This document shows positions 5,650 to 48,045 of a DNA stretch of 64,000 nt, piece by piece. Origin of the DNA: a bacterium (GTDB lineage Bacteria > Patescibacteriota > Dojkabacteria > SC72); assembly GCA_021463465.1 (NCBI GenBank), contig JAJTYH010000002.1:1347-65346 (forward strand), in the 5' to 3' direction. The notes under the pieces were generated by a model that was not told the DNA's origin, ran no database searches, and saw nothing but the letters and a program-made list of their open reading frames with translations. The number at the start of each line of letters is the position of its first letter. Position 1 is the stretch's first letter. A program made the translations under genes and the position numbers.

Positions 5650-5958
5650 TTGAGAATGCAAGTAGTAATTGGAGAGAGATTGAGAAAGGTCAGGCAAGAA
5701 AGAGGGATTTCCCAAAAGAAACTGGGTCTGATGTTGGGTCTTTCTGATAAAGCCGTAAGTGCATATGAGAGTGGGCGCACATTTCCTCCTTTAGGCACTC
5801 TTTTTCGGATAGCTAAAGAACTTGGGTGCGATATAACGTACTTTTTTACTGCAGATCAAAGCGAAGCTAATGTGAATGATCAATTACTTAGAATTGAAAC
5901 ATTATTACAAACAGTGAACGGCGAAGTACAAAAATTGAAAAAGAGCATTTCTAAATAG
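5650..5958 (+). CDS. XRE-family helix-turn-helix transcriptional regulator
   Basis: LRKVRQERGISQKKLGLMLGLSDKAVSAYESGRTFP is a classic Cro/C1 HTH. 102 aa. Confidence 0.7.
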   Translation: MRMQVVIGERLRKVRQERGISQKKLGLMLGLSDKAVSAYESGRTFPPLGTLFRIAKELGCDITYFFTADQSEANVNDQLLRIETLLQTVNGEVQKLKKSISK

Positions 5959-6655
5959 GGGCGTTTATCTGTCTTTCTAATTCATCTACAGCCTTATTAT
6001 GTAGATTTATCAACTCATTTAAACGTCTTACTTTTTCGGAACTTGTGAGTTCGAAATAGTTGTTTAAAAAGTAGTTTAACTTCTTAGGGTATTGCGAGTC
6101 GTTTATAAATAAAATGATGCCTTCCACATTAAAACTTTGACAATCGTTGAGAGTTTTATTGTTAGAAATCTGTTTTATACAAGTGGTAAGATTCTTTACT
6201 TGGTAATAATAGTCAATTATTTTAATCCTACCATTTATTTTCAACGCATACTCTTTGATATGTGCTTGTTTGAGGTTGTCTTCTTCTAAGTAACTCTGTA
6301 CCAACATCGATTTTGAACGATATTTAGCTAATTGTGAAAGAAGTTCATCATGAGCTATTAATTCTTCAGTGATATTTAAAGCCTGTGAGGTATATCCATC
6401 GGCTTTTACTAAATTGCCTCTAAAGTCTGAGATATCTTTGTGTCTGCGATTAACAAATGATATAGCCAGCTCTTCATTTTGATTGAACTCATTAATTAGA
6501 GCAGAACGCTCCTGTTCCATCTGAAGAAATGAAGTATTCAATTTGGACAGAAGAGGCTTTAAATATACAACAAGAAAAATCGTGCTAACCACAAGAATAA
6601 TAAAGAGTGGAAGAAGAGGGGGAAATTTGGGATTTAATCTGGAAGGTTGAACCAT
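5951..6655 (-). CDS. hypothetical membrane-anchored protein
   Basis: N-terminal transmembrane helix (LLPLFIILVVSTIFLVVYL). The rest is K/N/E-rich with no recognisable domain. Its stop overlaps the XRE gene stop convergently. Confidence 0.4.
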   Translation of the reverse strand: MVQPSRLNPKFPPLLPLFIILVVSTIFLVVYLKPLLSKLNTSFLQMEQERSALINEFNQNEELAISFVNRRHKDISDFRGNLVKADGYTSQALNITEELIAHDELLSQLAKYRSKSMLVQSYLEEDNLKQAHIKEYALKINGRIKIIDYYYQVKNLTTCIKQISNNKTLNDCQSFNVEGIILFINDSQYPKKLNYFLNNYFELTSSEKVRRLNELINLHNKAVDELERQINAPI

Positions 6656-7218
6656 TTGTCAAATCTTTTCTTGGACTTAACGGCGTAAATATATCCTACA
6701 TAACCAGCAAGAGCAAGAAACCCAGTCACTACTACCCATTTCAATATCATTCCTGTTTTATAATTTTGCGAAACTGGATCAGTAAGCAAGTCGTCAGTAA
6801 AGTTGATTAGAACTGAGCCAGAGGAGGTGTAGTTAGTATTAAATTGCCAGGCTATCACATTGGCGGCAATATTGTATGAACCCGAAGCTTGAGGTTTGAT
6901 TAATGCTTTATACGTATAAGTCTGCCCTGCAATTACTCCAAAAAAACGAGGGTATTTAGGTATAATCTCAACTCCACTCGGAGCATCCCAATCTATCTCT
7001 ACCTTGTTTGAATCTATTGTTGCTGTAAATTCAACAAAGACAGGTACATTCTTATTCCAAGCAGACTGCGACTCTGTATAAACTCGGACTGTAAAATACT
7101 CAAAAGAGGGGTTCGTAGTTGCCCCTGGAACGACAGGAGTCTCCTGCGCAAAAGTTCTAAACGGTAATAGAGTGACTAAAAACAATAGCAATAAGAGTAA
7201 AATTTTCTTCATAATCAT
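6634..7218 (-). CDS. secreted hypothetical protein with C-terminal TM anchor
   Basis: Signal peptide (MIMKKILLLLLLFLVTLLPFRTFA) and a C-terminal hydrophobic segment followed by a basic tail (VVVTGFLALAGYVGYIYAVKSKKRF). Confidence 0.45.
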   Translation of the reverse strand: MIMKKILLLLLLFLVTLLPFRTFAQETPVVPGATTNPSFEYFTVRVYTESQSAWNKNVPVFVEFTATIDSNKVEIDWDAPSGVEIIPKYPRFFGVIAGQTYTYKALIKPQASGSYNIAANVIAWQFNTNYTSSGSVLINFTDDLLTDPVSQNYKTGMILKWVVVTGFLALAGYVGYIYAVKSKKRFDKWFNLPD

Positions 7219-7641
7219 TTATTTTAACAATTTTAAGATGACATCAGAATAGGTTTGAAAAGCATCCACAGCGTCATCGTTATTAATCTCAATGTTCTCG
7301 TGTACGATTTGGTTTCTTAATTTGTGATAAAACCAGATGTCATTATAGGATTTCTTAGATAAAAAGGGTTTTGATTTCTTAAGATTCTCACCGCATCCTA
7401 AACTATTTTTGTGCCTAAGTTGAAGGGCTTTAGACAAAATTGCATCAAGCCTAACAATACCGTCTCTATTTGTATAAGGATTACTCAAAGTCATTGTGTA
7501 TTTAATATCATCAAGCTGTTTGAGTAATTCACTTTTTTCTTTGAAGGGAATATCGCGTGTTTTAGCTAGTGCAAGCAAAAAAATAATTAGAAGACCTATG
7601 ACTAGACCTATTGTTAGCATTAACGCATAATCCTGAACCAT
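7219..7641 (-). CDS. hypothetical protein with N-terminal TM helix
   Basis: A 140-aa ORF with an N-terminal hydrophobic helix, directly abutting neighbours on the same strand. Confidence 0.4.
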   Translation of the reverse strand: MVQDYALMLTIGLVIGLLIIFLLALAKTRDIPFKEKSELLKQLDDIKYTMTLSNPYTNRDGIVRLDAILSKALQLRHKNSLGCGENLKKSKPFLSKKSYNDIWFYHKLRNQIVHENIEINNDDAVDAFQTYSDVILKLLK

Positions 7642-9335
7642 TTCTTGTTAATTCTAACATAAAATATGTTAAGCAAAAAAAGCAGAGCCAAGAAACCTAA
7701 AAAGAGTAATAGCTCCGAAAGTACTTGTGTTTTATCGCTTATTCCTGCAATTTGATTTTCAAAGTTCAGTACTTTCTTATCACCTAAAAGCGTAAATACC
7801 TCTAAAGAAGTTTGAGATGGAAAACTTCGTGTTTGCCCTGGGAGTATAAGTTCGTTGACAGTCCCCGCTTTAACAATGACAGGTACATTGCCGCGGTTTT
7901 CCATGGATCTGTCAAAAGACACTACATCAAAATTAGCATCTACTGTCGTAGCTACCGGTGTAATAACTAAATCATTTTTAGATAAAAAGGGTAGCTTAGG
8001 ATGGGTAGGGTTACTGCTTCTGATCAAAAGCTTGAGATAGTTAGGTGAATTCGGTTCAACCGCACCCTTGCTATGCATGTCTTCAAGTGAGGGATCTAGC
8101 AGAGTCCATTGTTTGGTGTCAAAGTTGTAATACTCAACCCATGAATGGTAGAAACCTTCTTGAGTATAAACTGAGGCTTTGGGAATATAACCGACCACCA
8201 TACGTGCAGGTATTGAGGCATTTCTTAAAAGTGCAATCAGTAAATCTACATAATCTTCAGGTACTGCAAAAACCTTCCGGCCTATCGCAACATCTGCGCC
8301 CCCACGGAGAGCGCTTTCAAAAGATGTATCTGCTGTGAGAGTACTCTTTGGGGCAAGAGAAAGCTTTTCTACCACATATGTATTTAAATCCTCAGGTTTA
8401 AACTCGGGCTTATTTTCTAGAAAACCCTTTACCCTGATAAGCTCAAATTCATTAGTTAAATTCCAGTAACCTTGCGTTAGTAAATCGCTTTCTTGATAAG
8501 TCTCGTCATTTGAAAGATCTTTCTTGATTATGTAGCCAGAAATATTCACAGCTTCCTGTCCCTTTGGATTAACAATAAACCCAAGTACAATGTTTTCATC
8601 ATTGTCTAAACGTTGAGTAATAGGTTGGGGAGAAATTGAGCTAATTACGAACTGCTGTTCACTGTCGGTAAATGGTAGTGTCAGTTCATGAATTACAGGT
8701 TCCTCGCTTTCATTTAGATAAATCTTGTTGAACTCGTACTTGTATGTAGGAGGAGTTCCAAATAAGATTGAGATCTCTTGACCAGTAATTCGAGTGAATT
8801 CGTAAGAATTGTACGAGTAGTTAGTTCTTTTGGTCTGTGCTCCCTCGCTCCAGGATACCGCAGGATCATCTGAAGGGTAGATTAATGTGACTTTTGTGAC
8901 ATCCAACCCTGGTATTTTGCCGATTACTTTTGCAAACCCTCCGCTCTTATCAAAGCCTGAAAGCGATTCAAAGGTGATGTCGAATTCAAAGTTATCTCTT
9001 GGAGGAATGACCTTAGTTCCGAAATTGATTATGAGTTCAGTACCATTACGTTGGAGATGACTTGTCAACTTTGCAGAAGTCGGTTGATTTTTGAGTTTGA
9101 GATTCTGAATACCTTGATAAGGAAGCAGTATCGTGTAGTAGTTAAGTACCGCTGGTTCTCTACTCTTATTCTTTAAATCTATTGTTAAAACCGTATTGAA
9201 ACGTCCTTTCTCGTAAGCATACTCAATTCTACCCGTGGAAGTGAGTTGTTCGGCGGCCAAAGCTCTATCAGAAAAAGCGAGAGGGAGATTAAATAGTAAT
9301 AGGGTCAGAAGAAAAAAGCCAAGTAAATTTTTCAT
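7620..9335 (-). CDS. secreted transglutaminase-like (TGase-core) domain protein lacking the catalytic Cys, with C-terminal TM anchor
   Basis: Signal peptide. The block VPEDYVDLLIALLRNASIPARMVVGY...FYHSWVEYYNFDTKQWTLLDPS matches the TGase-core consensus (GvCEDYA...GIPAR...HaWvEvy...D), but the catalytic Cys position is Pro and the 571-aa protein has no cysteine at all. C-terminal hydrophobic anchor plus basic tail. Confidence 0.6.
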   Translation of the reverse strand: MKNLLGFFLLTLLLFNLPLAFSDRALAAEQLTSTGRIEYAYEKGRFNTVLTIDLKNKSREPAVLNYYTILLPYQGIQNLKLKNQPTSAKLTSHLQRNGTELIINFGTKVIPPRDNFEFDITFESLSGFDKSGGFAKVIGKIPGLDVTKVTLIYPSDDPAVSWSEGAQTKRTNYSYNSYEFTRITGQEISILFGTPPTYKYEFNKIYLNESEEPVIHELTLPFTDSEQQFVISSISPQPITQRLDNDENIVLGFIVNPKGQEAVNISGYIIKKDLSNDETYQESDLLTQGYWNLTNEFELIRVKGFLENKPEFKPEDLNTYVVEKLSLAPKSTLTADTSFESALRGGADVAIGRKVFAVPEDYVDLLIALLRNASIPARMVVGYIPKASVYTQEGFYHSWVEYYNFDTKQWTLLDPSLEDMHSKGAVEPNSPNYLKLLIRSSNPTHPKLPFLSKNDLVITPVATTVDANFDVVSFDRSMENRGNVPVIVKAGTVNELILPGQTRSFPSQTSLEVFTLLGDKKVLNFENQIAGISDKTQVLSELLLFLGFLALLFLLNIFYVRINKKWFRIMR

Positions 9336-9591
9336 ACTTTCTTAGAATCTGTTTAATTAGAGGGGTTTTGCTGGTAATACCCTTCTGTGTAAGCGTTTTG
9401 TCCCAACTAATTTTCTTAGGTGTGTTCGCCAGCCTATATTCGGGGTTTCGAACAATCTCTTGCTTGGCGTTCTTACGAATAACATAATATGACATACCCC
9501 TCATGTCATCAAGTGAATCATGAATTTTGATCCCACTAAAAGAGTATTCGGCAATGATTAATGGTGTCGCTTTAGTATTTGCTAAGCACAT
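9289..9591 (-). CDS. hypothetical protein, translationally coupled to the upstream ORF
   Basis: The frame opens just after a TAA. An ATG (9591-9589) overlaps the upstream ORF's stop. The ORF table offers a TTG start at 9606. Confidence 0.35.
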   Translation of the reverse strand: MCLANTKATPLIIAEYSFSGIKIHDSLDDMRGMSYYVIRKNAKQEIVRNPEYRLANTPKKISWDKTLTQKGITSKTPLIKQILRKYEKFTWLFSSDPITI

Positions 9592-10019
9592 TTCAAAATT
9601 TGGCAAAACAATTGCCTTCTGACCCTTTTCAAGTTAGTGTAGTAAATATCACCCTCGAATTTCTGTCCGAAATCTTGCATCATAAGTACACCTCCACCGT
9701 ATACAACCTCAATCAATCGGGGGTAGCTTTCAACCATATTGGCACGAGTTTTGACGAATTCTATCCCTGCAAGGTTTGGCATAATTACATAGAAATTAAT
9801 CTCTAAATTCTTACTCTTATATATTCCATCTTGATCAAGGCATGTGTATTTGTCATAAAAAGTTTCCGGACATGTGACTTCGTTGTTTAGCAGTTGTTTA
9901 CGGATATCATCAAGGCCGATTCTTTGAATTTGCTGAAATTGTAAGCCTGAGGCCATTAACGTTTCATTTTCAAAATGAATAGGAAAACCAGAGGATTTTC
10001 TCAAATCGATCTTCGTCAT
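9582..10019 (-). CDS. hypothetical protein
   Basis: A 145-aa ORF with no recognisable motif. Its stop overlaps the ATG of the next small gene (ATGTGCTTAG junction). Confidence 0.4.
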   Translation of the reverse strand: MTKIDLRKSSGFPIHFENETLMASGLQFQQIQRIGLDDIRKQLLNNEVTCPETFYDKYTCLDQDGIYKSKNLEINFYVIMPNLAGIEFVKTRANMVESYPRLIEVVYGGGVLMMQDFGQKFEGDIYYTNLKRVRRQLFCQILKCA

Positions 10020-10041: not shown

Positions 10042-10332
10042 TTAATCGGTCGAAAAAGCCTTTACCATCTCAATTACTACATAACCAATGATGAGATAGA
10101 AGAAAAGTGCTACTACCGAAACAAGTTCTAGACGGAAGACATTTATCTGTAAGACTTCAAAATCGAGCACGCCTTTAAACGGCGAAACAAAGTATCCGCT
10201 CCACCTCAATATAGAATTGACAATACTGCCACCATCAGGAATATTGAAGAAAATAAGGCTAATTCTCAGGACAATTAATGCCTGTACAGAGACAGTTGCA
10301 ACGTAAAGTAATCTAGCAACAAGTTTAAACAT
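10042..10332 (-). CDS. YggT-family small integral membrane protein (putative)
   Basis: A 96-aa two-helix membrane protein with a central SPFKGVLDF-like segment, similar in size and topology to the YggT/Ycf19 family. Confidence 0.4.
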   Translation of the reverse strand: MFKLVARLLYVATVSVQALIVLRISLIFFNIPDGGSIVNSILRWSGYFVSPFKGVLDFEVLQINVFRLELVSVVALFFYLIIGYVVIEMVKAFSTD

Positions 10333-10354: not shown

Positions 10355-11062
10355 TTAGATCTTTTCAAGATTCTCCAAATAGAAGTCTAATTCAAGCATG
10401 AATTTAGTTACGCCGTTAGCCCATGCATGAGCGGGATTGGCATAGCATGGTGGACAGTAGACTGGTTCAATCTGGAAAGGTGTGAGGCTAGTTCCGTAAC
10501 CGATTGCCAAACGCTGAGTTACAGTCTGGATACCTTCTTTCCAAGTAACAAACTCGCTGTAAGCCCCCCCTGGACCACCTCGCCACCCCCAGGCGTTGTG
10601 GGTACCGCTATGAGGAATAAGATTTCCAAAGGCTGACTCTACACCGGAAATTGATGCGACAAGCCTCCAATCTAATCCTGTGTCTTCTGCTTCAGTTACA
10701 AGCACATCTGAGTATGGGTACATTGGAGAGTTATAATCAAGTAAAAACTTTCGCATAGCTAAAATTCTTGGGTTACTTGTTTTGATTCCAGTCCCACCAT
10801 TAAGAAGAAGGGTTGAGGAGTCACCTATCAGATTTGAGCGAAGATCTAGTGATGAACCGTTTTTTCCGATTACTATTTCACTTAGATTTACCCCATTCCG
10901 ATAGGTTGATAATGTCATAGTTTCCACCCTGGAATTAATACCAGCAAATACAGGTTTCAATACGGTGAATCGTAAGAGGCCATATATGGAAAGTACAACC
11001 AGGATAGAGAGCATAATCCTAGAAAGTTTAGAAAAAAGTGTCTCTTTGCTAACATTTGTCAT
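10355..11062 (-). CDS. membrane-anchored lysozyme-like / lytic-transglycosylase-like protein (paralog B)
   Basis: N-terminal transmembrane helix. DWRLVASISGVESAFG...HNAWGWRGGPGG...FVTWKEGIQTVTQRLA parallels the ORF at 1541-2140. Confidence 0.4.
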   Translation of the reverse strand: MTNVSKETLFSKLSRIMLSILVVLSIYGLLRFTVLKPVFAGINSRVETMTLSTYRNGVNLSEIVIGKNGSSLDLRSNLIGDSSTLLLNGGTGIKTSNPRILAMRKFLLDYNSPMYPYSDVLVTEAEDTGLDWRLVASISGVESAFGNLIPHSGTHNAWGWRGGPGGAYSEFVTWKEGIQTVTQRLAIGYGTSLTPFQIEPVYCPPCYANPAHAWANGVTKFMLELDFYLENLEKI

Positions 11063-14519: not shown

Positions 14520-16012
14520 TAGAATATCTTGTGAATACACAACTCCAAGACAAGATCACCTTACTCCCTAGGTCGAGTGGCATTTATAAGTTTTTGAACC
14601 GTGAAGGTAAGGTTTTATATATTGGAAAAGCACATAACTTAAAGTCACGAGTTTCAAGCTATTTTTCAGATACCCATCTAGATCGTCCGCGAATTGTTGG
14701 GATGATTCCTCTTATAGCAGATATCAACTATGTTGAAACAGATAATGATATTGAGGCACTAGTATTGGAGTCTGCGTTAATAAAACGGGAGCAGCCTAAA
14801 TATAATACTGATGCAAAAGATGATAAATCGTACTCATACCTTTATATTAATATTAAACACGACTATCCGACGGTAAGGATTGTAAGACAGGTTTCCAAAG
14901 CTGAACTTAAAGAAGGGAAACTTTTTGGCCCGTACCCAAGCGGTGGTTCGGTTCGTAGAGTTTTTCATTATCTCCGAAGGATATTTCCTTTCTGTACAAG
15001 TAAAGATCCAACTAAACCTTGTTTTGATATGCATATCGGACTCTGTCCAGGTCCAATTCCCTCTCAGGAGTATCGTAAGAATATTAATGGAATAATTGAG
15101 TTCCTTAAGGGCAAAAGCAACCATCTTATTAAAAATGTGGTCGATGAAATGGAGTTAGCTTCAGATAATCAAGAATACGAAAGTGCGGCCATATTACGTG
15201 ACAAGGTTAATGACTTGCGTTACCTGACCTCAAAAATAAGAGTAGATAATATGGAAAATGAGCTTGAATATGTTCAAATCCGGAGACAGCGAGCTAAGAA
15301 AAGACTGCAAAGCTTAGCCAAAGAATTGAACATAAATCAGATTCATCGAGTTGAATGCTACGATATTTCCAATCTTCAAGGCAAGTTTGCTTATGGATCA
15401 ATGGCTGTTGCTATTGATGGTATTAATGATAACAGTCAGTATCGAATATTTAAGATTAGGGGTGTCGATATACCTAATGACCTAGCAATGTTATCAGAAG
15501 TCTTGAGGAGGAGGATTAAATATTTAAGAAACGAACTAGATGTAAGCCTAGGGCAAATTCCGACTATTATTCTGATTGATGGGGGTGGAAATCAACTACA
15601 AGCCGTAAATGACCTTGTTCCGAAAGATATCGTACTACTTGGCATTACTAAAGGTAGGAAATATCGGAGAAAAGGAGGTAGATTGCTTGATGAGTTCTGG
15701 AAGATAGAGAATAATGAGATAGTACAGTTGAAATTAAGAAATACACAGTCCTTATCACTACTGAGAGATGAAGCCCATCGATTTGCACTACTTCATCACC
15801 GCAAAGCCAAAGCTAAAGGTAACATCAAATCCTATCTGGATGAAATCCCACTTGTCGGACCAAAAACCAAAAAGCTTTTGAAGCAAGCATTTAGTTCTAA
15901 AGAACTGCTGCGTAGTACAAGCAGGGAAAAGCTTGTGGGGATTGTTAAAAACTCTAAAATTGCTGATGCAATTATTGAATACTTTAAGGCTGAACTGTCT
16001 CAACCTGGGTAA
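14516..16012 (+). CDS. uvrC: excinuclease ABC subunit C (compact form)
   Basis: GIY-YIG N-terminus (SGIYKFLNREGKVLYIGKAHNLKSRVSSYF), a UVR motif (AAILRDKVNDLRY), an RNase H-like endonuclease region and C-terminal HhH. The GTG start overlaps the dnaE TGA (GTGA). Confidence 0.85.
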   Translation: MIEYLVNTQLQDKITLLPRSSGIYKFLNREGKVLYIGKAHNLKSRVSSYFSDTHLDRPRIVGMIPLIADINYVETDNDIEALVLESALIKREQPKYNTDAKDDKSYSYLYINIKHDYPTVRIVRQVSKAELKEGKLFGPYPSGGSVRRVFHYLRRIFPFCTSKDPTKPCFDMHIGLCPGPIPSQEYRKNINGIIEFLKGKSNHLIKNVVDEMELASDNQEYESAAILRDKVNDLRYLTSKIRVDNMENELEYVQIRRQRAKKRLQSLAKELNINQIHRVECYDISNLQGKFAYGSMAVAIDGINDNSQYRIFKIRGVDIPNDLAMLSEVLRRRIKYLRNELDVSLGQIPTIILIDGGGNQLQAVNDLVPKDIVLLGITKGRKYRRKGGRLLDEFWKIENNEIVQLKLRNTQSLSLLRDEAHRFALLHHRKAKAKGNIKSYLDEIPLVGPKTKKLLKQAFSSKELLRSTSREKLVGIVKNSKIADAIIEYFKAELSQPG

Positions 16013-17063
16013 GGTTTTGCAGCATATAATTGAAGAAAGGTTCATTTTCTTCAAACGCAGCTATCACATAGATCAAAGTGTTAGAGTTGTTTTTTACTGC
16101 TACTATGGAGCCAAAATCTGAGCCTTTGTTAACTGTTGCACGGACCGCGTATTCTCCTCTAAACTCAGTTTCTACCGAATTAACTACCTGCCACTTACTT
16201 TTATGTTTTTTGTTGAAACTCGCAATGAAATTATCTATATAACCGTCATAAGTATTCCCGCCGTTATATCCGACTGGTTCTAAATAAATAATGCTATTAT
16301 CACCAAGCCTTTGAAATGAAACCCCTTGAAAAGATTTAATGCCAGTTGCGTAATACTTCGCGGTGTACTCTGTTGGGAAATTTAAACGCCAAGGAAAATC
16401 AGGAAGTAGATCTGCTTTTTCGGTGGTTAATAATAAAAGTTTCCTAGCAATTTCCTTTTTTACCTCATCCTCCAGTCCTGTTTGAGCTTGTTTTACAGTA
16501 ACTGTTTGATACCACACATCGTTTAATCTAGAATATATTCTCAGCCCTTTGTCACCTTTAACCCAATACTCCCCAAAAAGTCGATCTTCTGAAGTAATTG
16601 AAACTGAAAGCACATGCTGCCATTCTTTAGGCGGTAGTTGCTCAACATAAAATGAAAAAACATCGGCTATCTCAGCATCTTTGGGTAATCTGTAAACACT
16701 ATTTCCCAATGAAATGAAGTGCTTAACCGTTTCGTCATCTGTGTCATTACTAAAAATGAACTCGGAACCAGGGTAGGCGGGGATATCAAAACCGTAAACT
16801 TGTTCTGTCGATAAAACTGCTTCTTTTTCTGATCGCAAAGCGACAATATAGCGATAGGTCCAGAGTCCTAATAAAACAAGTAAGGCGATTGATAAAAGAA
16901 AAATTGCAAAAAGTAGAACTGTACCAACAAACTGTCGTTGAATTTGCTGTAAAACTCGTTTTTGCTGTTTGGATTTGGTCTTCAGAACTACGCCAATTCG
17001 GTTAACTTTTTTGATTCGTCCTTTTCGTACTTTAAAGATCACATTGTTTGGATGTTTTGGCAT
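15984..17063 (-). CDS. hypothetical membrane-anchored protein
   Basis: Basic N-terminus followed by one transmembrane helix (VLLFAIFLLSIALLVLLGLW), then a roughly 280-aa extracytoplasmic region with no recognisable motif. Its 3' end overlaps the uvrC 3' end convergently. Confidence 0.4.
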   Translation of the reverse strand: MPKHPNNVIFKVRKGRIKKVNRIGVVLKTKSKQQKRVLQQIQRQFVGTVLLFAIFLLSIALLVLLGLWTYRYIVALRSEKEAVLSTEQVYGFDIPAYPGSEFIFSNDTDDETVKHFISLGNSVYRLPKDAEIADVFSFYVEQLPPKEWQHVLSVSITSEDRLFGEYWVKGDKGLRIYSRLNDVWYQTVTVKQAQTGLEDEVKKEIARKLLLLTTEKADLLPDFPWRLNFPTEYTAKYYATGIKSFQGVSFQRLGDNSIIYLEPVGYNGGNTYDGYIDNFIASFNKKHKSKWQVVNSVETEFRGEYAVRATVNKGSDFGSIVAVKNNSNTLIYVIAAFEENEPFFNYMLQNLTQVETVQP

Positions 17064-40759: not shown

Positions 40760-41851
40760 TTAGTTAATGCTTCCTATCAACTGATAAATCGGTCCTACAA
40801 TTGTTATTGCCAAAACCCCAATCATCACGGCAACTAGAATCAACATAACTGGTTCAAGTAGTGTTGCTAGATTTTCGGTCAAGTCAGTAACCTCCTCAGT
40901 ATAGTAATCAGCTAAGAAAGCAAGGTTCTCTTCCAGAGTGCCAGTACCTTCAGAAATCTCCAGAATTTTGGTATATGTCTCAGGAAATAATTTGGGGTGC
41001 AGTGCTAATGCCGTAGCCAGGTTTTTACCACCTTTTACATCTTTTCTAACCTCTTCCAAGGCATTTATATACTCCGTGTTATTGACACTTTCTGCTGCAA
41101 CTTTAAGCGATTGCGAGAACGAGGTACCGCTTTCTAGCAAAATTCCCAACGTTCGAGAGAAGTTTGCTAAAAAACGAAAGCGATTTACCTTTCCAAGTAC
41201 AGGAAAGCGAAGTGAAATATAGTCAGAGATACGCCTTCCAATTTTGGTCTTAAGAAAGATATACCCAATCAGTCCAAGTGCCACTACTCCTAGCAAGATA
41301 TATAAACCATTAGTTCTCATGAATGCCGTAGCATCGAGAATCGCCTTAGTAAATGGTGGAATGTTCTTAAATGAGCTAAAAAGTGCTTCCATTCTGGGCA
41401 GAATGAAAAACACCATTCCCAACATTTCAACTCCTGTCAAAGAAAAAATGATAATAGGGTAGGTCATAGCTCCTTTAATCCGCTTATCAAATTCATACTT
41501 CTTTTTCAGATACTCCGCCAAAAAAAGCAGGTTCTTCTCTAATACCGCTGCCTCTTCACCCACAGTAACAAGTGAGACTACCATCTCAGAAAAAATCTTA
41601 GGATATTTAGACATAGATGAAGATAAGTTATTTCCTGCGGCCAAACTCGAATAAATCTCTTCGAAAGCTTTTCGTAAGCGTGCGTCCTCAGACTGTTTAC
41701 CAAGAACTTTAATACTCTCAGAAAGTGATAAACCGGATTTAAGCATCAGTGCAAGATGGCGAATTGCTAGTGCAACATGTAAATCAGACACTTTGCTTAA
41801 GTAGACTTCTGACGTAATACCAGGTTTTTTAACTTCTCTGGGTTTATTCAT
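40760..41851 (-). CDS. pilC: type IV pilus assembly platform protein PilC (GspF family)
   Basis: Two GspF repeats and three transmembrane segments. 363 aa. Confidence 0.85.
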   Translation of the reverse strand: MNKPREVKKPGITSEVYLSKVSDLHVALAIRHLALMLKSGLSLSESIKVLGKQSEDARLRKAFEEIYSSLAAGNNLSSSMSKYPKIFSEMVVSLVTVGEEAAVLEKNLLFLAEYLKKKYEFDKRIKGAMTYPIIIFSLTGVEMLGMVFFILPRMEALFSSFKNIPPFTKAILDATAFMRTNGLYILLGVVALGLIGYIFLKTKIGRRISDYISLRFPVLGKVNRFRFLANFSRTLGILLESGTSFSQSLKVAAESVNNTEYINALEEVRKDVKGGKNLATALALHPKLFPETYTKILEISEGTGTLEENLAFLADYYTEEVTDLTENLATLLEPVMLILVAVMIGVLAITIVGPIYQLIGSIN

Positions 41852-43196
41852 GCAAAGAGGTAACCTTAACTAATTCGTCTAAAGTAATCATTCCAGTTCT
41901 AAGTTTAATCATTCCGTCTTCCATAAGTAGTACTAGACCGTTTTTACGGGCAACAGATAGTAGCTGGTCAGCTGTAACATTCTTTGCAATAACCTCTCGT
42001 ACATCTTTTGTAACTTCAAGTAATTCATACAAGCCAATTCGGCCTTTATAACCTAAGTTGTTACATGCATTGCAACCTACAGAATCGTAGACTGAATCAC
42101 CTACTTTAAGTAATTTAACAATATCTGCCCTAATTTTAGACAGCTCGTCTAAGTCAGCTTTATTAACTTTCCTAGCTTTCTTACATTCCTGGCAAAGTCT
42201 TCTGGCAAGTCGCTGCGCAATCACTAAAGTCAGAGTAGAGGCAGCCAGATAACTCTCAATTCCCATGTCTGTTAAACGAGGAATAGTGGTAACCGCATCG
42301 TTCGTGTGTATTGTCGAAAGCACTAGATGGCCTGTCAAAGCAGCATTAATGGCAATACGTGCTGTCTCAGCATCACGAATCTCACCAATCATCATAATAT
42401 TTGGGTCTTGTCGTAAAAGAGCTCTAAGCCCAGTTGCAAAGGTCAAATCAGTTTTGGTATTCACCTGCACATGATTAACACCCTCAATGTCATACTCCAC
42501 TGGGTCTTCTACCGTAACAATATTCTTCTCACGGGTATTTATCCCCTTAAGTAATGTATAAAGAGTTGTAGTTTTGCCTGACCCAGTTGGACCTGCAGCA
42601 ATAATCATACCGAAAGGTTTCTTCTGATTCTTCTCTACAATCTCCAGGTCTTTGGCTGAAAACCCAAGGTCTGTAAGGGTAAAGTCGCGTCCAGTATCGG
42701 TTAAGAGTCTAAATACGACTTTTTCTCCCTTGGTAACGGGCAAAATGGAGATACGGACATTGAGCTTTGCACCATCAATCTTAAACTCCACACGGCCATC
42801 CTGGGGAATGAAGTGCTCATCTGTTTGCAGTCTCGAGATAACTTTAATCTTAAAAATCAACAGATGTTCCATCTCTTTAGGAATCTCTAACATATCGTGA
42901 AGGGAGCCGTCTATTCTGAAACGAATAATCATTGAAAGCTCACGAGGTTCCATATGAATATCGGAAGCACGATTAAGCAATGCCTCTTTCACTATACCTT
43001 CAAGCAATACCCCTACATCTTCGGAAATGTCATTTTTGAGGCAGAAGTCCACTTCAGGACTGGTTACAAAGCCTTCAGCCAATCGGCGAATATGTTTTAA
43101 TTCTTCTTTAGAGTCAACAGGTAGTGTAGCTTCAGTCTTCGACTCCTCTTTCGAAACCTTCTCCTCTTTTTCCTCCTTTAAATCTATCTTTTTCAT
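41844..43196 (-). CDS. pilB: type IV pilus assembly ATPase PilB (GspE family)
   Basis: Walker A GPTGSGKTTT, Asp/His boxes, and a tetracysteine region (CQEC...CNAC). Confidence 0.9.
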   Translation of the reverse strand: MKKIDLKEEKEEKVSKEESKTEATLPVDSKEELKHIRRLAEGFVTSPEVDFCLKNDISEDVGVLLEGIVKEALLNRASDIHMEPRELSMIIRFRIDGSLHDMLEIPKEMEHLLIFKIKVISRLQTDEHFIPQDGRVEFKIDGAKLNVRISILPVTKGEKVVFRLLTDTGRDFTLTDLGFSAKDLEIVEKNQKKPFGMIIAAGPTGSGKTTTLYTLLKGINTREKNIVTVEDPVEYDIEGVNHVQVNTKTDLTFATGLRALLRQDPNIMMIGEIRDAETARIAINAALTGHLVLSTIHTNDAVTTIPRLTDMGIESYLAASTLTLVIAQRLARRLCQECKKARKVNKADLDELSKIRADIVKLLKVGDSVYDSVGCNACNNLGYKGRIGLYELLEVTKDVREVIAKNVTADQLLSVARKNGLVLLMEDGMIKLRTGMITLDELVKVTSLHE

Positions 43197-46770: not shown

Positions 46771-48045
46771 TTATTTGCCTCTAACTATATCACTTACTTC
46801 TTTTACAATCTTTGATGCACTATCAAAGTTGCCTTCTGATATTTTACCTTTGTGGAAGATTTCAAAAAAGAATTCATCTAACTTCTTAAGCGTAATTGAA
46901 TCTAAATTTGGATTGTATCTTCCAACTTTTCTCAAACTATCAGATCTATACATTGGGATTTTTGCAGTCTTATCTAATTCCTTTGATGAATGAGGAGACA
47001 CACCAGTGAAAGAGTAGTAAACAGTGGCAGCAAAGCTATACAAATCATCAAATTTAGTAGGAGAATTACCTAGTAGAATACTAGGTGACATATATTCAAA
47101 CGAAGAAACCGCGGCGGCTTCTTCAGGAGTTGTACTCTTAACTAGATCGACTGACTTAACAGATTCCATATCAATCATCTTTACTAAAGGTCTTGTATGT
47201 ACATCTTTTACATATTCTAACTGCCAATTACCTTTGCCACTGCTTGGAACAACAAATTGGCCGGGCTTAATATCTCTATGAACGGCATTGTTTGCGTGGA
47301 TATGATCAACAGCATTTGCACAATCACTTAACATCACTAAACGTGGTTCACTTTCTAAAAGAGTAACATCGATTCCTTCAAGAGAAGGTCCAGAAACATA
47401 TTCCATGACTAAAACTGGATGAAAAGCATCCCGAGAATTCGTTCCGTTACTCTCTTCTTTTCGAAGGAAAGTAGAATCATATATTTTAACAATGTTTGGA
47501 TGGTCAGGTACAGTATTAAAACCGAGCATTTCTTGCGTACTTTTAACAAATGCAGCATCAATCCCTTCAAAACTTGAATCAAATACTTTTATAGCAACTG
47601 GCCTTTCTAAACGTTCATCTTCTGCTAGCCAAACCTCTCCATAGCCTCCGTACTTACCTCCGCTTAAAAATCCAACGACATGGTATCTGCCGTCATTTTG
47701 TACTTCAAACGCTCGAAAGCTTCCAGTTGAACCCATCTTTACTATCGCAAAATCATGCTGTAAAACTTTAATCACATCATCGATATGCGGAAGCTTATCT
47801 TGTTCTAAGACTAACTGTTCACCAATTGTTGATACTTTGTCTCCCTCTTTAACTCCAATGGATGAGAATGAATCCGGTGCATTTATTTGAATATTCGGAG
47901 ATAGAACAACCTTACCATCTGAGAGTGGAGGACCAAGATTTGCCTTAAATTCTTTAACAGGAAACTCCATAACTATTGGCTCAAGGTTATCTGTTTTTGG
48001 ATTTCTTATTTGTCCGATTGTAGTTTTAAAGGTACCATCACCCAT
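46771..48045 (-). CDS. Hanks-type Ser/Thr protein kinase-like protein with degenerate DFG/APE motifs
   Basis: Gly-rich loop GGKYGGYGEVW, VAIKVF (beta3 Lys), HRDIKPGQ (catalytic loop, N replaced by Q), KMIDME in place of DFG, and YMSPS in place of APE. A roughly 130-aa N-terminal extension of unknown fold. Confidence 0.6.
   Translation of the reverse strand: MGDGTFKTTIGQIRNPKTDNLEPIVMEFPVKEFKANLGPPLSDGKVVLSPNIQINAPDSFSSIGVKEGDKVSTIGEQLVLEQDKLPHIDDVIKVLQHDFAIVKMGSTGSFRAFEVQNDGRYHVVGFLSGGKYGGYGEVWLAEDERLERPVAIKVFDSSFEGIDAAFVKSTQEMLGFNTVPDHPNIVKIYDSTFLRKEESNGTNSRDAFHPVLVMEYVSGPSLEGIDVTLLESEPRLVMLSDCANAVDHIHANNAVHRDIKPGQFVVPSSGKGNWQLEYVKDVHTRPLVKMIDMESVKSVDLVKSTTPEEAAAVSSFEYMSPSILLGNSPTKFDDLYSFAATVYYSFTGVSPHSSKELDKTAKIPMYRSDSLRKVGRYNPNLDSITLKKLDEFFFEIFHKGKISEGNFDSASKIVKEVSDIVRGK

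Follow-up and report, generated by a model that had tools for sequence, protein, structure and literature searches.

Genes and features of the locus

The window, by which we mean the whole 64-kb stretch of DNA that was analysed, encodes a single copy of a transglutaminase (TGase)-like protein family, ORF 7620-9335, whose product is identical to a record annotated at NCBI as 'transglutaminase domain-containing protein [bacterium]' (P0001). The gene lies within a co-directional unit that begins at the intergenic region of the divergently oriented dnaE gene and extends from position 11062 down to 5951. The features of this unit and of the TGase-like protein are listed in Table 1.

Table 1. Coordinates, in the window, of the TGase-like gene, its protein features and the neighboring genes.
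Feature	Position	Strand	Description	Basis
Whole ORF	7620-9335	(-)	Cys-less TGase-like ectoprotein, 571 aa, ATG to TAA
Signal peptide	9255-9335	(-)	Residues 1-27 (K2, hydrophobic 3-21, A25-L26-A27/A28)	Hydropathy, AF2
N-terminal beta-sandwich regions	8526-9245	(-)	Two regions, residues 31-270	AF2 model, fold comparison
TGase / papain-like alpha-beta core	8001-8492	(-)	Residues 282-445	Pfam, profile, AF2
PF01841 match	8091-8411	(-)	Residues 309-415	Pfam
Pro359	8259-8261	(-)	Codon CCT, nucleophile (Cys) position, starts core helix	Alignments, AF2
His397	8145-8147	(-)	Codon CAT, triad His kept	Alignments
Asp414	8094-8096	(-)	Codon GAT, triad Asp kept, D-P motif	Alignments
C-terminal beta-sandwich	7764-7970	(-)	Residues 456-524, with N480-x-G482-N483 motif	AF2, alignment
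C-terminal TM helix and tail	7623-7733	(-)	Helix ~535/539-563; basic cytoplasmic tail RINKKWFRIMR	Hydropathy, AF2
g235	10355-11062	(-)	First cluster gene; membrane-anchored lysozyme-like cell-wall hydrolase homologue
YggT-like protein	10042-10332	(-)	96-aa integral membrane protein
Cupin-type glucose-6-phosphate isomerase	9289-10019	(-)	Cytoplasmic; directly upstream, overlaps TGase-like start by 47 nt
g140	7219-7641	(-)	N-terminal TM helix and HEPN four-helix bundle, invariant R109-x4-H114	Single-sequence model
g194	6634-7218	(-)	Signal peptide, then an ectodomain of beta-sandwich type with a weak match to BatD, and a C-terminal TM	Pfam, hydropathy
g234	5951-6655	(-)	Last, variable cluster gene; N-terminal TM helix
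XRE-type HTH gene	5650-5958	(+)	Convergent with cluster, overlaps its 3' end

The sequence-only reading of this DNA placed the TGase-like gene in a block of secreted or anchored hypothetical proteins behind an XRE regulator, and both parts of that description need correction. The XRE-type gene is convergent with the cluster, and its position therefore does not make it an upstream regulator of these genes. The neighbors include the homologue of a hydrolase (g235), a cytoplasmic isomerase upstream, and g140, a TM-anchored protein with a HEPN domain predicted to lie in the cytoplasm. The isomerase gene is frameshifted in the window at a run of A residues at ~9625 (A4 vs A5). Downstream, g140 overlaps the stop codon of the TGase-like gene by 22 nt and is itself abutted by g194, in which the tail W[LF]x[PL]P is conserved.

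The single-sequence model of g140 has the four-helix up-down bundle and the Rx4-6H motif by which HEPN domains are recognized. A membrane-anchored HEPN protein with the Rx4H motif intact was not expected at this locus. A profile of g140 had no match among PDB sequences. The link between HEPN domains and transglutaminases in a HEPN survey concerns intracellular defence fusions, and is irrelevant here. The only Pfam match above threshold among the neighbors was the HTH of the XRE-type protein; g140 and g235 had no match at all, g234 had none that passed the threshold, and g194 and g209 had weak matches to BatD and DUF4214, respectively. No NCBIfam model matched the TGase-like protein or its neighbors. 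A scan for promoters and terminators was uninformative: it returned 19 promoter-like sites, where 17.6 were expected, and within the cluster the minus strand showed no site resembling a terminator. The neighborhood is conserved in the lineage, but gene order is shared lineage-wide over the whole region, dnaE, uvrC and rplS included, so that synteny by itself is no proof that these genes are linked in function.

A transglutaminase fold with proline at the nucleophile position

The protein has two hydrophobic segments (residues 1-23 and 535-563), and its N-terminus forms a helix in the AF2 model (residues 2-21), followed by a low-pLDDT linker (residues 23-25), with signal-peptide cleavage inferred after A27. 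The signal peptide and the C-terminal transmembrane (TM) anchor with a basic tail, both proposed from the sequence alone, thus fit hydropathy and the predicted structure. Together they would place the TGase-like domain extracellularly, which is consistent with, rather than proof of, a type-I membrane-anchored protein displaying its core outside the cell. The cytoplasmic tail is short and not conserved.

The identity of the core is well supported. PF01841 (Transglut_core) matches the protein with E=1.7e-10 and 41.6 bits (gathering cutoff 23), and the peptides cited in the sequence-only reading map to residues 358-383 and 397-416. A single-sequence search of PDB gave a marginal match to TgpA (chain 6g49, E=0.67), in which Y246 pairs with Y362 of the query. 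The family profile has TgpA as its best PDB sequence-profile match (E=1.4e-11), with C243 of 'CAHY' in the nucleophile column, and in 3isr it places the Cys of 'GVCRDFA' in the same column. The register is further confirmed by full-length Cys-bearing relatives: in 82 of the 155 members of the family alignment, the residue opposite P359 is Cys.

In the predicted structure P359 opens the core helix (residues 359-372), H397 lies on a strand (395-404) and D414 directly follows the next (409-413), so that in this model the layout of the three positions is canonical papain-like. The second N-terminal beta-sandwich is predicted to pack on the core in the arrangement seen in 3isr, and overall the N-terminal beta regions resemble the N-domain of OST1 and M1-aminopeptidases. 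The protein therefore has the papain-like alpha/beta core fold and the His and Asp of the triad, the retention of which had been claimed, on consecutive beta-strands, while the N-terminus of the core helix carries Pro359 instead of the nucleophilic Cys. This makes it a fold homologue of the transglutaminase-like superfamily and not a catalytic member. Since the CCT codon is two substitutions away from TGY, Pro359 is not the product of a single-base error.

The sequence-only reading also stressed that the whole protein lacks cysteine. The count of zero is correct, but it is weak evidence: among the 40 ORFs in the window that reach 200 aa, 11 are likewise free of Cys, and at the window frequency of 0.52% the probability of finding none in 571 aa is ~0.05. 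Other orthologues with a Cys-less nucleophile position have 3-4 Cys elsewhere.

Cys-bearing relatives and the Cys-less clade

Searches with the full-length profile recovered 581 cluster representatives that match end-to-end at E<=1e-30, and the family comprises ~1,900 hits in all. The Cys-bearing form, an ecto-TGase-like protein of ~600 aa, is widespread in Microgenomates-group CPR bacteria and shares with the Cys-less form its signal peptide, two beta domains, core, beta-sandwich and TM helix. Proteins of the Microgenomates-group family resemble the query in this architecture, at ~20% identity, and to some extent in lying near uvrA/uvrC. Unlike the query, all 82 that were sampled have Cys at the nucleophile position within a tightly conserved active-site shell, and their genes are directly flanked by uvrA and uvrC, with no g140 or g194 nearby. 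The gene order uvrA-TGase-uvrC is found in three Cys-bearing loci, and one further locus (L029) has the order uvrC-dnaE-cluster-uvrA; in the window, uvrC lies ~5 kb from the TGase-like gene and uvrA is absent. This residual synteny suggests that the query is probably the orthologue of the Cys-bearing Microgenomates protein. Loci were retrieved with a seed pattern, [FY]H[SY]W... (alignment A1), which cannot match the LHxW consensus of Cys-bearing proteins, and the scan is therefore uninformative on Cys-bearing paralogues in the same genomes. A role in nucleotide-excision repair, which the adjacency of uvrA/uvrC and the precedent of Rad4/XPC might bring to mind, was rejected because the predicted signal peptide and anchor place the domain outside the cell.

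The Cys-less proteins group as one deep branch of Candidatus Dojkabacteria in an NJ tree, which is rough and midpoint-rooted. The loss of the nucleophile is ancient and clade-wide, and in this tree it maps essentially to one branch. The nucleophile column of the clade is hypervariable, with 11 residue types (P, A, V, S, T, Q, D and others) among which Pro and Ala are dominant, and Ser or Thr is found in a minority of members. The position of His397 is retained in 91% of the clade (lost in 5 of 57), and that of Asp414 in 100%. The shell of active-site residues that is conserved in Cys-bearing relatives has mostly decayed, the position of W417 included, while R344, D361, D364, R378, E401 and R439 are still conserved. 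For most of these retained positions, conservation is just as high in Cys-bearing proteins, so that they probably belong to the fold or the cleft. P72, R439 and the N-x-G-N motif at 480-483 are fixed in the Cys-less clade only. Mean pairwise identity is lower in the Cys-less sample than in the Cys-bearing one (24% vs 31%), so part of the apparent decay of the shell reflects general divergence.

Members of the Cys-less clade are intact full-length ORFs with 22-43% identity to the query, and dN/dS is ~0.06-0.08, with dS near saturation. These values indicate that the gene, including its dead core, is maintained under strong purifying selection. An incomplete triad is thus combined with evolutionary maintenance, the two properties by which pseudoenzymes of the TGase fold are recognized, and the suggestion that this is probably one is supported by the clade-wide loss of Cys, the decayed shell and the low dN/dS.

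Proposed role and comparison with known systems

The explanation that we consider likely, and the best for the observations as a whole, is that the Dojkabacteria TGase-like protein is a pseudoenzyme kept for a non-catalytic role, probably binding or scaffolding at the cell envelope. Its ancestor would have been an ecto-TGase-like protein of ~600 aa with a Cys-His-Asp triad, and the Cys would have been lost at the root of Dojkabacteria. Without this Cys, thiol-based transamidation or proteolysis is impossible, and most of the surrounding active-site residues have drifted since the loss. The former substrate cleft and the beta-sandwich domains may now bind a peptide or protein ligand without turnover, and the protein may act as a scaffold or receptor with the translationally coupled g140 (TM-HEPN) and g194 (ectoprotein), in a cluster headed by the peptidoglycan-hydrolase homologue g235. 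The ligand is pure conjecture in this proposal, and so is any physical contact of the protein with g140 or g194.

A more specific and rather unlikely version is that the protein is a receptor converted from a surface transglutaminase or protease which, together with g194, gates g140 as a membrane-anchored HEPN ribonuclease. By analogy with Ire1/RNase L or abortive infection, the ectodomains would sense an external ligand, for instance something on the surface of a phage or host cell or a piece of envelope, and control dimerisation or activation of the HEPN domain in the cytoplasm. Such a bacterial module, a 'dead-enzyme sensor to RNase' acting across the membrane, would belong to the core genome of a CPR lineage. 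However, the cytoplasmic tail is short and not conserved, the cluster lies in a housekeeping region that is collinear across the lineage rather than in a defence island, and HEPN domains may be non-catalytic, the g140 model being moreover derived from a single sequence.

The sequence-only reading suggested an adhesin or a peptide- or glycan-binding module, and in one form of this suggestion the dead surface domain would bind a peptide or glycan of a host cell during attachment. The predicted surface topology, the several beta-sandwich domains with a retained cleft and the affiliation of the lineage with CPR bacteria, which are often episymbionts, agree with this suggestion, but we regard it as unlikely. 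Host-range adhesins usually vary fast, and a dN/dS of 0.06-0.08 as well as a single copy in the window at a conserved housekeeping position are atypical for them; strong conservation and syntenic position thus argue against a classical fast-evolving adhesin. In addition, the Cys-bearing orthologue is very common in related lineages, which suggests a core envelope role, and neither Pfam nor NCBIfam detected a lectin or adhesin domain.

It is very unlikely that the protein has kept an enzymatic activity that works without a thiol, for example through water activated by His397/Asp414 or, in some members, a Ser or Thr nucleophile. Non-canonical triads do occur in the transglutaminase-like superfamily (PMC10318531), and the near-complete retention of His and Asp, the six other conserved charged residues and the minority with Ser or Thr would be in line with such a mechanism. 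However, the 11 residue types of the nucleophile column are dominated by Pro and Ala, which are unable to act as nucleophiles, the query reads V-P-E at this site and lacks Ser, Thr and Cys in its vicinity, most of the shell has decayed, the His itself is lost in some members, and most of what is retained is equally conserved in Cys-bearing proteins. Finally, that the gene is merely decaying without function, as the loss of the catalytic residue and most of the shell might indicate, is almost certainly wrong, since ORFs are intact across the clade, new clade-specific residues have become fixed and the dN/dS effectively refutes it.

If the protein is a maintained pseudoenzyme, the label 'transglutaminase domain-containing protein' implies an activity that the Cys-less clade cannot have. 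Almost no CPR surface proteins have known roles, and this strongly conserved surface protein and the tightly linked membrane HEPN protein are candidates for a part in organising the envelope or in signalling in these bacteria. The literature on Dojkabacteria, Microgenomates and Patescibacteria in combination with transglutaminase yielded nothing on the ~600-aa CPR ectoprotein family, and our search found no bacterial, extracellular, lineage-wide example of an inactive TGase fold.

Among proteins of known structure, 3isr, a putative TGase-like cysteine protease of Cytophaga hutchinsonii from structural genomics, is 16% identical to the query and functionally uncharacterised; it has kept its Cys, and three parts of the query have no counterpart in it, namely the TM anchor, the C-terminal beta-sandwich and the extra one at the N-terminus. 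TgpA (PA2873) of Pseudomonas aeruginosa is, like the query, membrane-anchored with an extracytoplasmic PF01841 domain; it has TGase activity in vitro, and an essential role linked to the cell wall was proposed by its authors (PMC3507681). The pseudomurein endoisopeptidases PeiW/PeiP and the LapG-type BTLCP proteases are active Cys enzymes in another domain context and are not orthologous to it.

Pseudoenzymes are common, and inactive TGase-fold proteins are well documented in eukaryotes, where they include band 4.2 (EPB42), Cyk3, Rad4/XPC, FBXO21 and DRC7. The query is as distant from these families as from active enzymes or more so, and the losses are therefore independent. The eukaryotic proteins are intracellular, whereas the query is bacterial and predicted to be extracellular, and its loss is lineage-wide with a probable, Cys-bearing orthologue identifiable in sister lineages. 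With the loss on one branch and a shell whose decay can be followed column by column, the family would offer a natural experiment in the conversion of an enzyme into a binding protein.

Catalytic register and topology of the query

The 571-residue query protein matches the Pfam-A model PF01841 (Transglut_core) over residues 309-415 (E=1.7e-10; 41.6 bits, curated cutoff 23), and NCBI holds an identical protein labelled 'transglutaminase domain-containing protein [bacterium]'. Three independent lines of evidence confirm that Pro359 occupies the position of the catalytic nucleophile. The family profile places its nucleophile column on C243 in the C-A-H-Y motif of Pseudomonas aeruginosa TgpA (E=1.4e-11) and, in 3isr, on the GVCRDFA Cys, and a pairwise HMMER alignment pairs Y246 of TgpA (chain 6g49) with Y362 of the query. 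For the periplasmic PF01841 domain of TgpA, transglutaminase activity has been measured and the triad is conserved (PMC3507681). In the MAFFT alignment, the P359 column is Cys in 82 of 155 full-length family members and lacks it in those nearest the query. Finally, in the AlphaFold2 model (150-sequence alignment as input; mean pLDDT 92.7, pTM 0.86), P359 opens the core helix 359-372, the retained triad residue H397 lies on strand 395-404, and the retained D414 directly follows strand 409-413, a modelled layout of canonical papain-like geometry. The replacement of the catalytic Cys by Pro with His and Asp kept, as proposed by the sequence-only reading, is thus borne out by profile register, orthologue survey and model alike. 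Pro359 is encoded by CCT, which differs from a Cys codon by two substitutions.

By hydropathy, the segments 1-23 and 535-563 are hydrophobic, and the C-terminal sequence is RINKKWFRIMR. In the model, an N-terminal helix (2-21) leads through a linker of low confidence into beta-rich domains (31-270), after which come an alpha/beta core (282-440), a beta-sandwich (456-524) and, at the end, a long helix (535-570). Such an arrangement agrees with cleavage of a signal peptide and with anchoring as a type-I membrane protein, most of which is predicted to be extracellular; we infer cleavage between A27 and A28 in A25-L26-A27-A28. The reported count of zero cysteines in all 571 residues is correct but carries little weight, because 11 of the 40 ORFs of at least 200 aa in the window are also Cys-free and the chance of such an absence is about 0.05, with Cys making up 0.52% of long ORFs in the window. 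Some orthologues that lack the nucleophile Cys have 3-4 Cys at other sites.

Cysteine loss and decay of the active-site shell

The window encodes a single member of this family. A word-indexed search returned eight homologues (28-43% identity); their nucleophile column is P, A or T, never Cys, and the triad His and Asp do not vary among them. Of the 1.84 billion cluster representatives covered by an exhaustive profile search, 1,880 reached E<=1e-3 and 581 reached E<=1e-30, and nearly all of the top 150 matches are about 600 aa long and match end to end. The members nearest the query have P (26), A (15), V (8), S (8), T, Q and D (3 each) and others at the nucleophile column, and all 82 Cys-bearing proteins in the 155-member triad tabulation are more distant from the query. 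Neighbor-joining places the Cys-less sequences in a single clade of 57, including the query, and an adjacent group of 8, with four singletons isolated within the Cys-bearing group. These singletons (P0074, P0118, P0120 and P0130) have T, S, N and A at the nucleophile column, which points either to repeated independent losses or to errors in sequencing; it also hints at a possibly important non-catalytic role of the family even in members that keep the Cys. The Fitch minimum comes to 5 changes. Since the remaining superfamily has Cys, the simplest history is a single ancient loss with subsequent radiation and a few independent losses later on. Where genomes with the Cys-less form are named, they belong to Candidatus Dojkabacteria (formerly WS6) or carry a generic CPR MAG label. 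Starting from the Cys-bearing member P0080, a search at E<=1e-20 brought up at least 3,313 proteins, with Candidatus Shapirobacteria, Blackburnbacteria, Microgenomates and 'Patescibacteria group' as named sources.

Comparison of the two groups shows Cys loss to be ancient and clade-wide, with decay of most of the catalytic surroundings. The shell residues Y327, L396, T416, W417, T420, D424, Y425, F426, D430, H433 and G440 are each 84-100% conserved in Cys-bearing members. In the Cys-less clade the commonest residue at these columns reaches only 23-42% at eight positions; at L417 and H433 it stands at 72%. In the query these columns include L327, S416, L417 and Y433. Counting positions conserved at 90% or more, the core has 28 in Cys-bearing and 14 in Cys-less members and the adjoining beta domain 15 and 6, respectively; the C-terminal sandwich shows no drop (3 and 5). 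The Cys-less sample is more divergent overall (mean pairwise identity 24% vs 31%), but the shell drop at most positions goes far beyond the general one. The fold core, with R344, D364, G382, W399, W410, D414 and P415, is fixed in both groups; a fixed N-x-G-N motif at 480-483 in the C-terminal sandwich, P72 and R439 are gains of the Cys-less clade.

Judged from its sequence, the query would be incapable of thiol-based transamidation or proteolysis. A thiol-independent enzyme is unlikely as well, as the nucleophile column is hypervariable (eleven residue types in Cys-less members, mainly Pro and Ala), no replacement nucleophile has been recruited in that column or its variable neighbors in the Cys-less alignment, the active-site shell has decayed, and His397 is lost in 5 of the 57 clade members.

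The gene itself is not decaying. Intact ORFs of 560-680 aa occur in every related locus of sufficient length, and three Cys-less pairs at 69-80% amino-acid identity have dN/dS of 0.06-0.08, values that are approximate because dS is near saturation; in the same pairs the core is constrained no less than the flanking domains. These comparisons show the whole protein to be still maintained by selection in the Cys-less clade. Together with clade-wide Cys loss and shell decay, they support the initial proposal of a likely pseudoenzyme.

Conserved gene order and partner genes

Every related locus of sufficient length has the same order: uvrC and dnaE on one strand; then, on the other, g235, a YggT-like gene, cupin-type glucose-6-phosphate isomerase (GPI), the TGase gene, g140, g194 and a variable gene; and finally XRE, g209 and rplS facing the cluster. 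Junctions are tight: the TGase gene shares 47 nt at its start with GPI and 22 nt at its stop with g140, and g140 and g194 abut directly. No terminator-like site was found on the cluster strand inside the cluster, in a scan that was uninformative overall. The XRE gene had been described as a regulator preceding the block; it is instead on the opposite strand, convergent, at the cluster 3' end, which is not an upstream-regulator position. Most related loci lack the variable last gene g234, and there the HTH gene converges on g194. Synteny alone is no proof of a functional link, because collinearity extends to the housekeeping genes on either side.

Features of the window and of three Cys-bearing loci (L026-L028)
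Feature	Location	Strand	Remarks
g235 paralogue	1541-2140	minus	membrane-anchored like g235
XRE-type HTH gene	5650-5958	plus	convergent with last gene; 3' ends overlap 8 nt
Last gene	5951-6655	minus	
g194	6634-7218	minus	signal peptide, beta-sandwich ectodomain, C-terminal TM helix
TGase ORF	7620-9335	minus	571 codons, ATG to TAA
Cupin-type GPI	9289-10019	minus	two frames in window; A4 vs A5 homopolymer at about 9625
g235	10355-11062	minus	ortholog profile vs phage cell-wall hydrolase 8yxk, E=1.6e-5
Large ORF, 359 aa, Cys-free	15984-17063	minus	no Pfam match at E<=1e-5
Large ORF, 647 aa	38387-40330	minus	no Pfam match at E<=1e-5
Type II/IV secretion ATPase (T2SSE)	41844-43196	minus	
Ser/Thr protein kinase	46771-48045	minus	
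Large ORF, 590 aa	48090-49862	minus	no Pfam match at E<=1e-5
NHL-repeat beta-propeller protein, 866 aa	50666-53266	minus	
Cys-bearing TGase, L026	7001-8857		uvrA-TGase-uvrC
Cys-bearing TGase, L027	7001-8869		uvrA-TGase-uvrC
Cys-bearing TGase, L028	7001-8926		uvrA-TGase-uvrC

Cys-bearing relatives occupy a different and strikingly constant slot, between uvrA and uvrC, in three independent contigs of Microgenomates-group bacteria (gaps to uvrA of 10-18 nt, overlaps with uvrC of 4-41 nt). In L029, the locus of P0067 from a deep second Cys-less clade, the whole cluster lies between uvrC-dnaE and uvrA, and this residual synteny supports probable positional orthology of the Cys-less and Cys-bearing genes. 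For a protein predicted to be extracellular the uvrA/uvrC slot is odd, and it is curious beside the inactive TGase fold of eukaryotic Rad4/XPC; the arrangement is probably lineage synteny. Downstream of uvrC in L028 (10567-15926), a 7TM_transglut (PF14402) gene, several ATP-grasp genes and a MATCAP-like gene form what looks like a peptide-modification cluster.

The 8yxk match of the g235 profile spans the E-S-x-x-G ... N-N-x-W-G-W region, and g235 and its paralogue have in common the motifs GLDWRLVASISGVESAFGN...NNAWGW and YCPPC..NP.H.WANGV; both are probably lysozyme-like peptidoglycan hydrolases outside Pfam coverage. The g140 sequence R109-N-x-[IV]-V-H114, invariant across ten orthologues and L029, is the HEPN Rx4-6H motif; basic residues after the g140 TM helix predict a cytoplasmic HEPN domain. 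Among g194 orthologues the motif W..DTNYT is conserved, as is the W[LF]x[PL]P tail at the extreme C-terminus; this tail could be a docking motif. The neighbors had been read as four further secreted or anchored hypotheticals, a reading in need of correction for the cell-wall-hydrolase homologue g235 and for the predicted cytoplasmic HEPN domain of g140. No g140 or g194 homologue lies within 7 kb of the Cys-bearing genes, and a word-indexed search of limited reach found no g140 homologue outside the Dojkabacteria lineage. The GPI protein is 243 aa in L001-L004 and all orthologous loci; its split into two frames in the window is caused by the A4 versus A5 difference from NCBI JADYZE010000008.1, probably an assembly error or strain variant. 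Elsewhere in the window, the 359-aa ORF adjoins uvrC and is conserved in related loci reaching that far, while the secretion ATPase, kinase and NHL-repeat protein are candidates for further surface or signaling components of this CPR genome.

Proposed role and comparison with known systems

In the best explanation the protein would work at the cell envelope as a module for binding or scaffolding, without catalysis; it may use its former cleft and beta-sandwich domains, probably together with g140 and g194. The envelope theme is suggested by the presence of a cell-wall hydrolase homologue and a YggT-like gene in the same co-directional cluster. A classical host adhesin is less likely, given that the gene evolves slowly and belongs to the core genome. 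That the ectoprotein serves as a sensor for g140 is a long shot. Among the leads, the most promising one is this linked HEPN protein with its membrane anchor.

By homology and fold, the query belongs to the transglutaminase-like superfamily; the name 'transglutaminase' is unfit for it, since the defining nucleophile Cys is absent. Its actual family is an uncharacterized group of ~600-aa ectoproteins of Microgenomates-group CPR bacteria, and we found no paper on this family or on a bacterial Cys-less TGase clade. Inactive TGase-fold proteins are established in eukaryotes, namely band 4.2, Cyk3, Rad4/XPC, FBXO21 and DRC7 (PMC10318531; PMC3386208). The query resembles them as a functional class but has no specific relationship to them, which argues that its loss was independent. 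It would represent a bacterial case of an already known phenomenon, the catalytically dead TGase fold.
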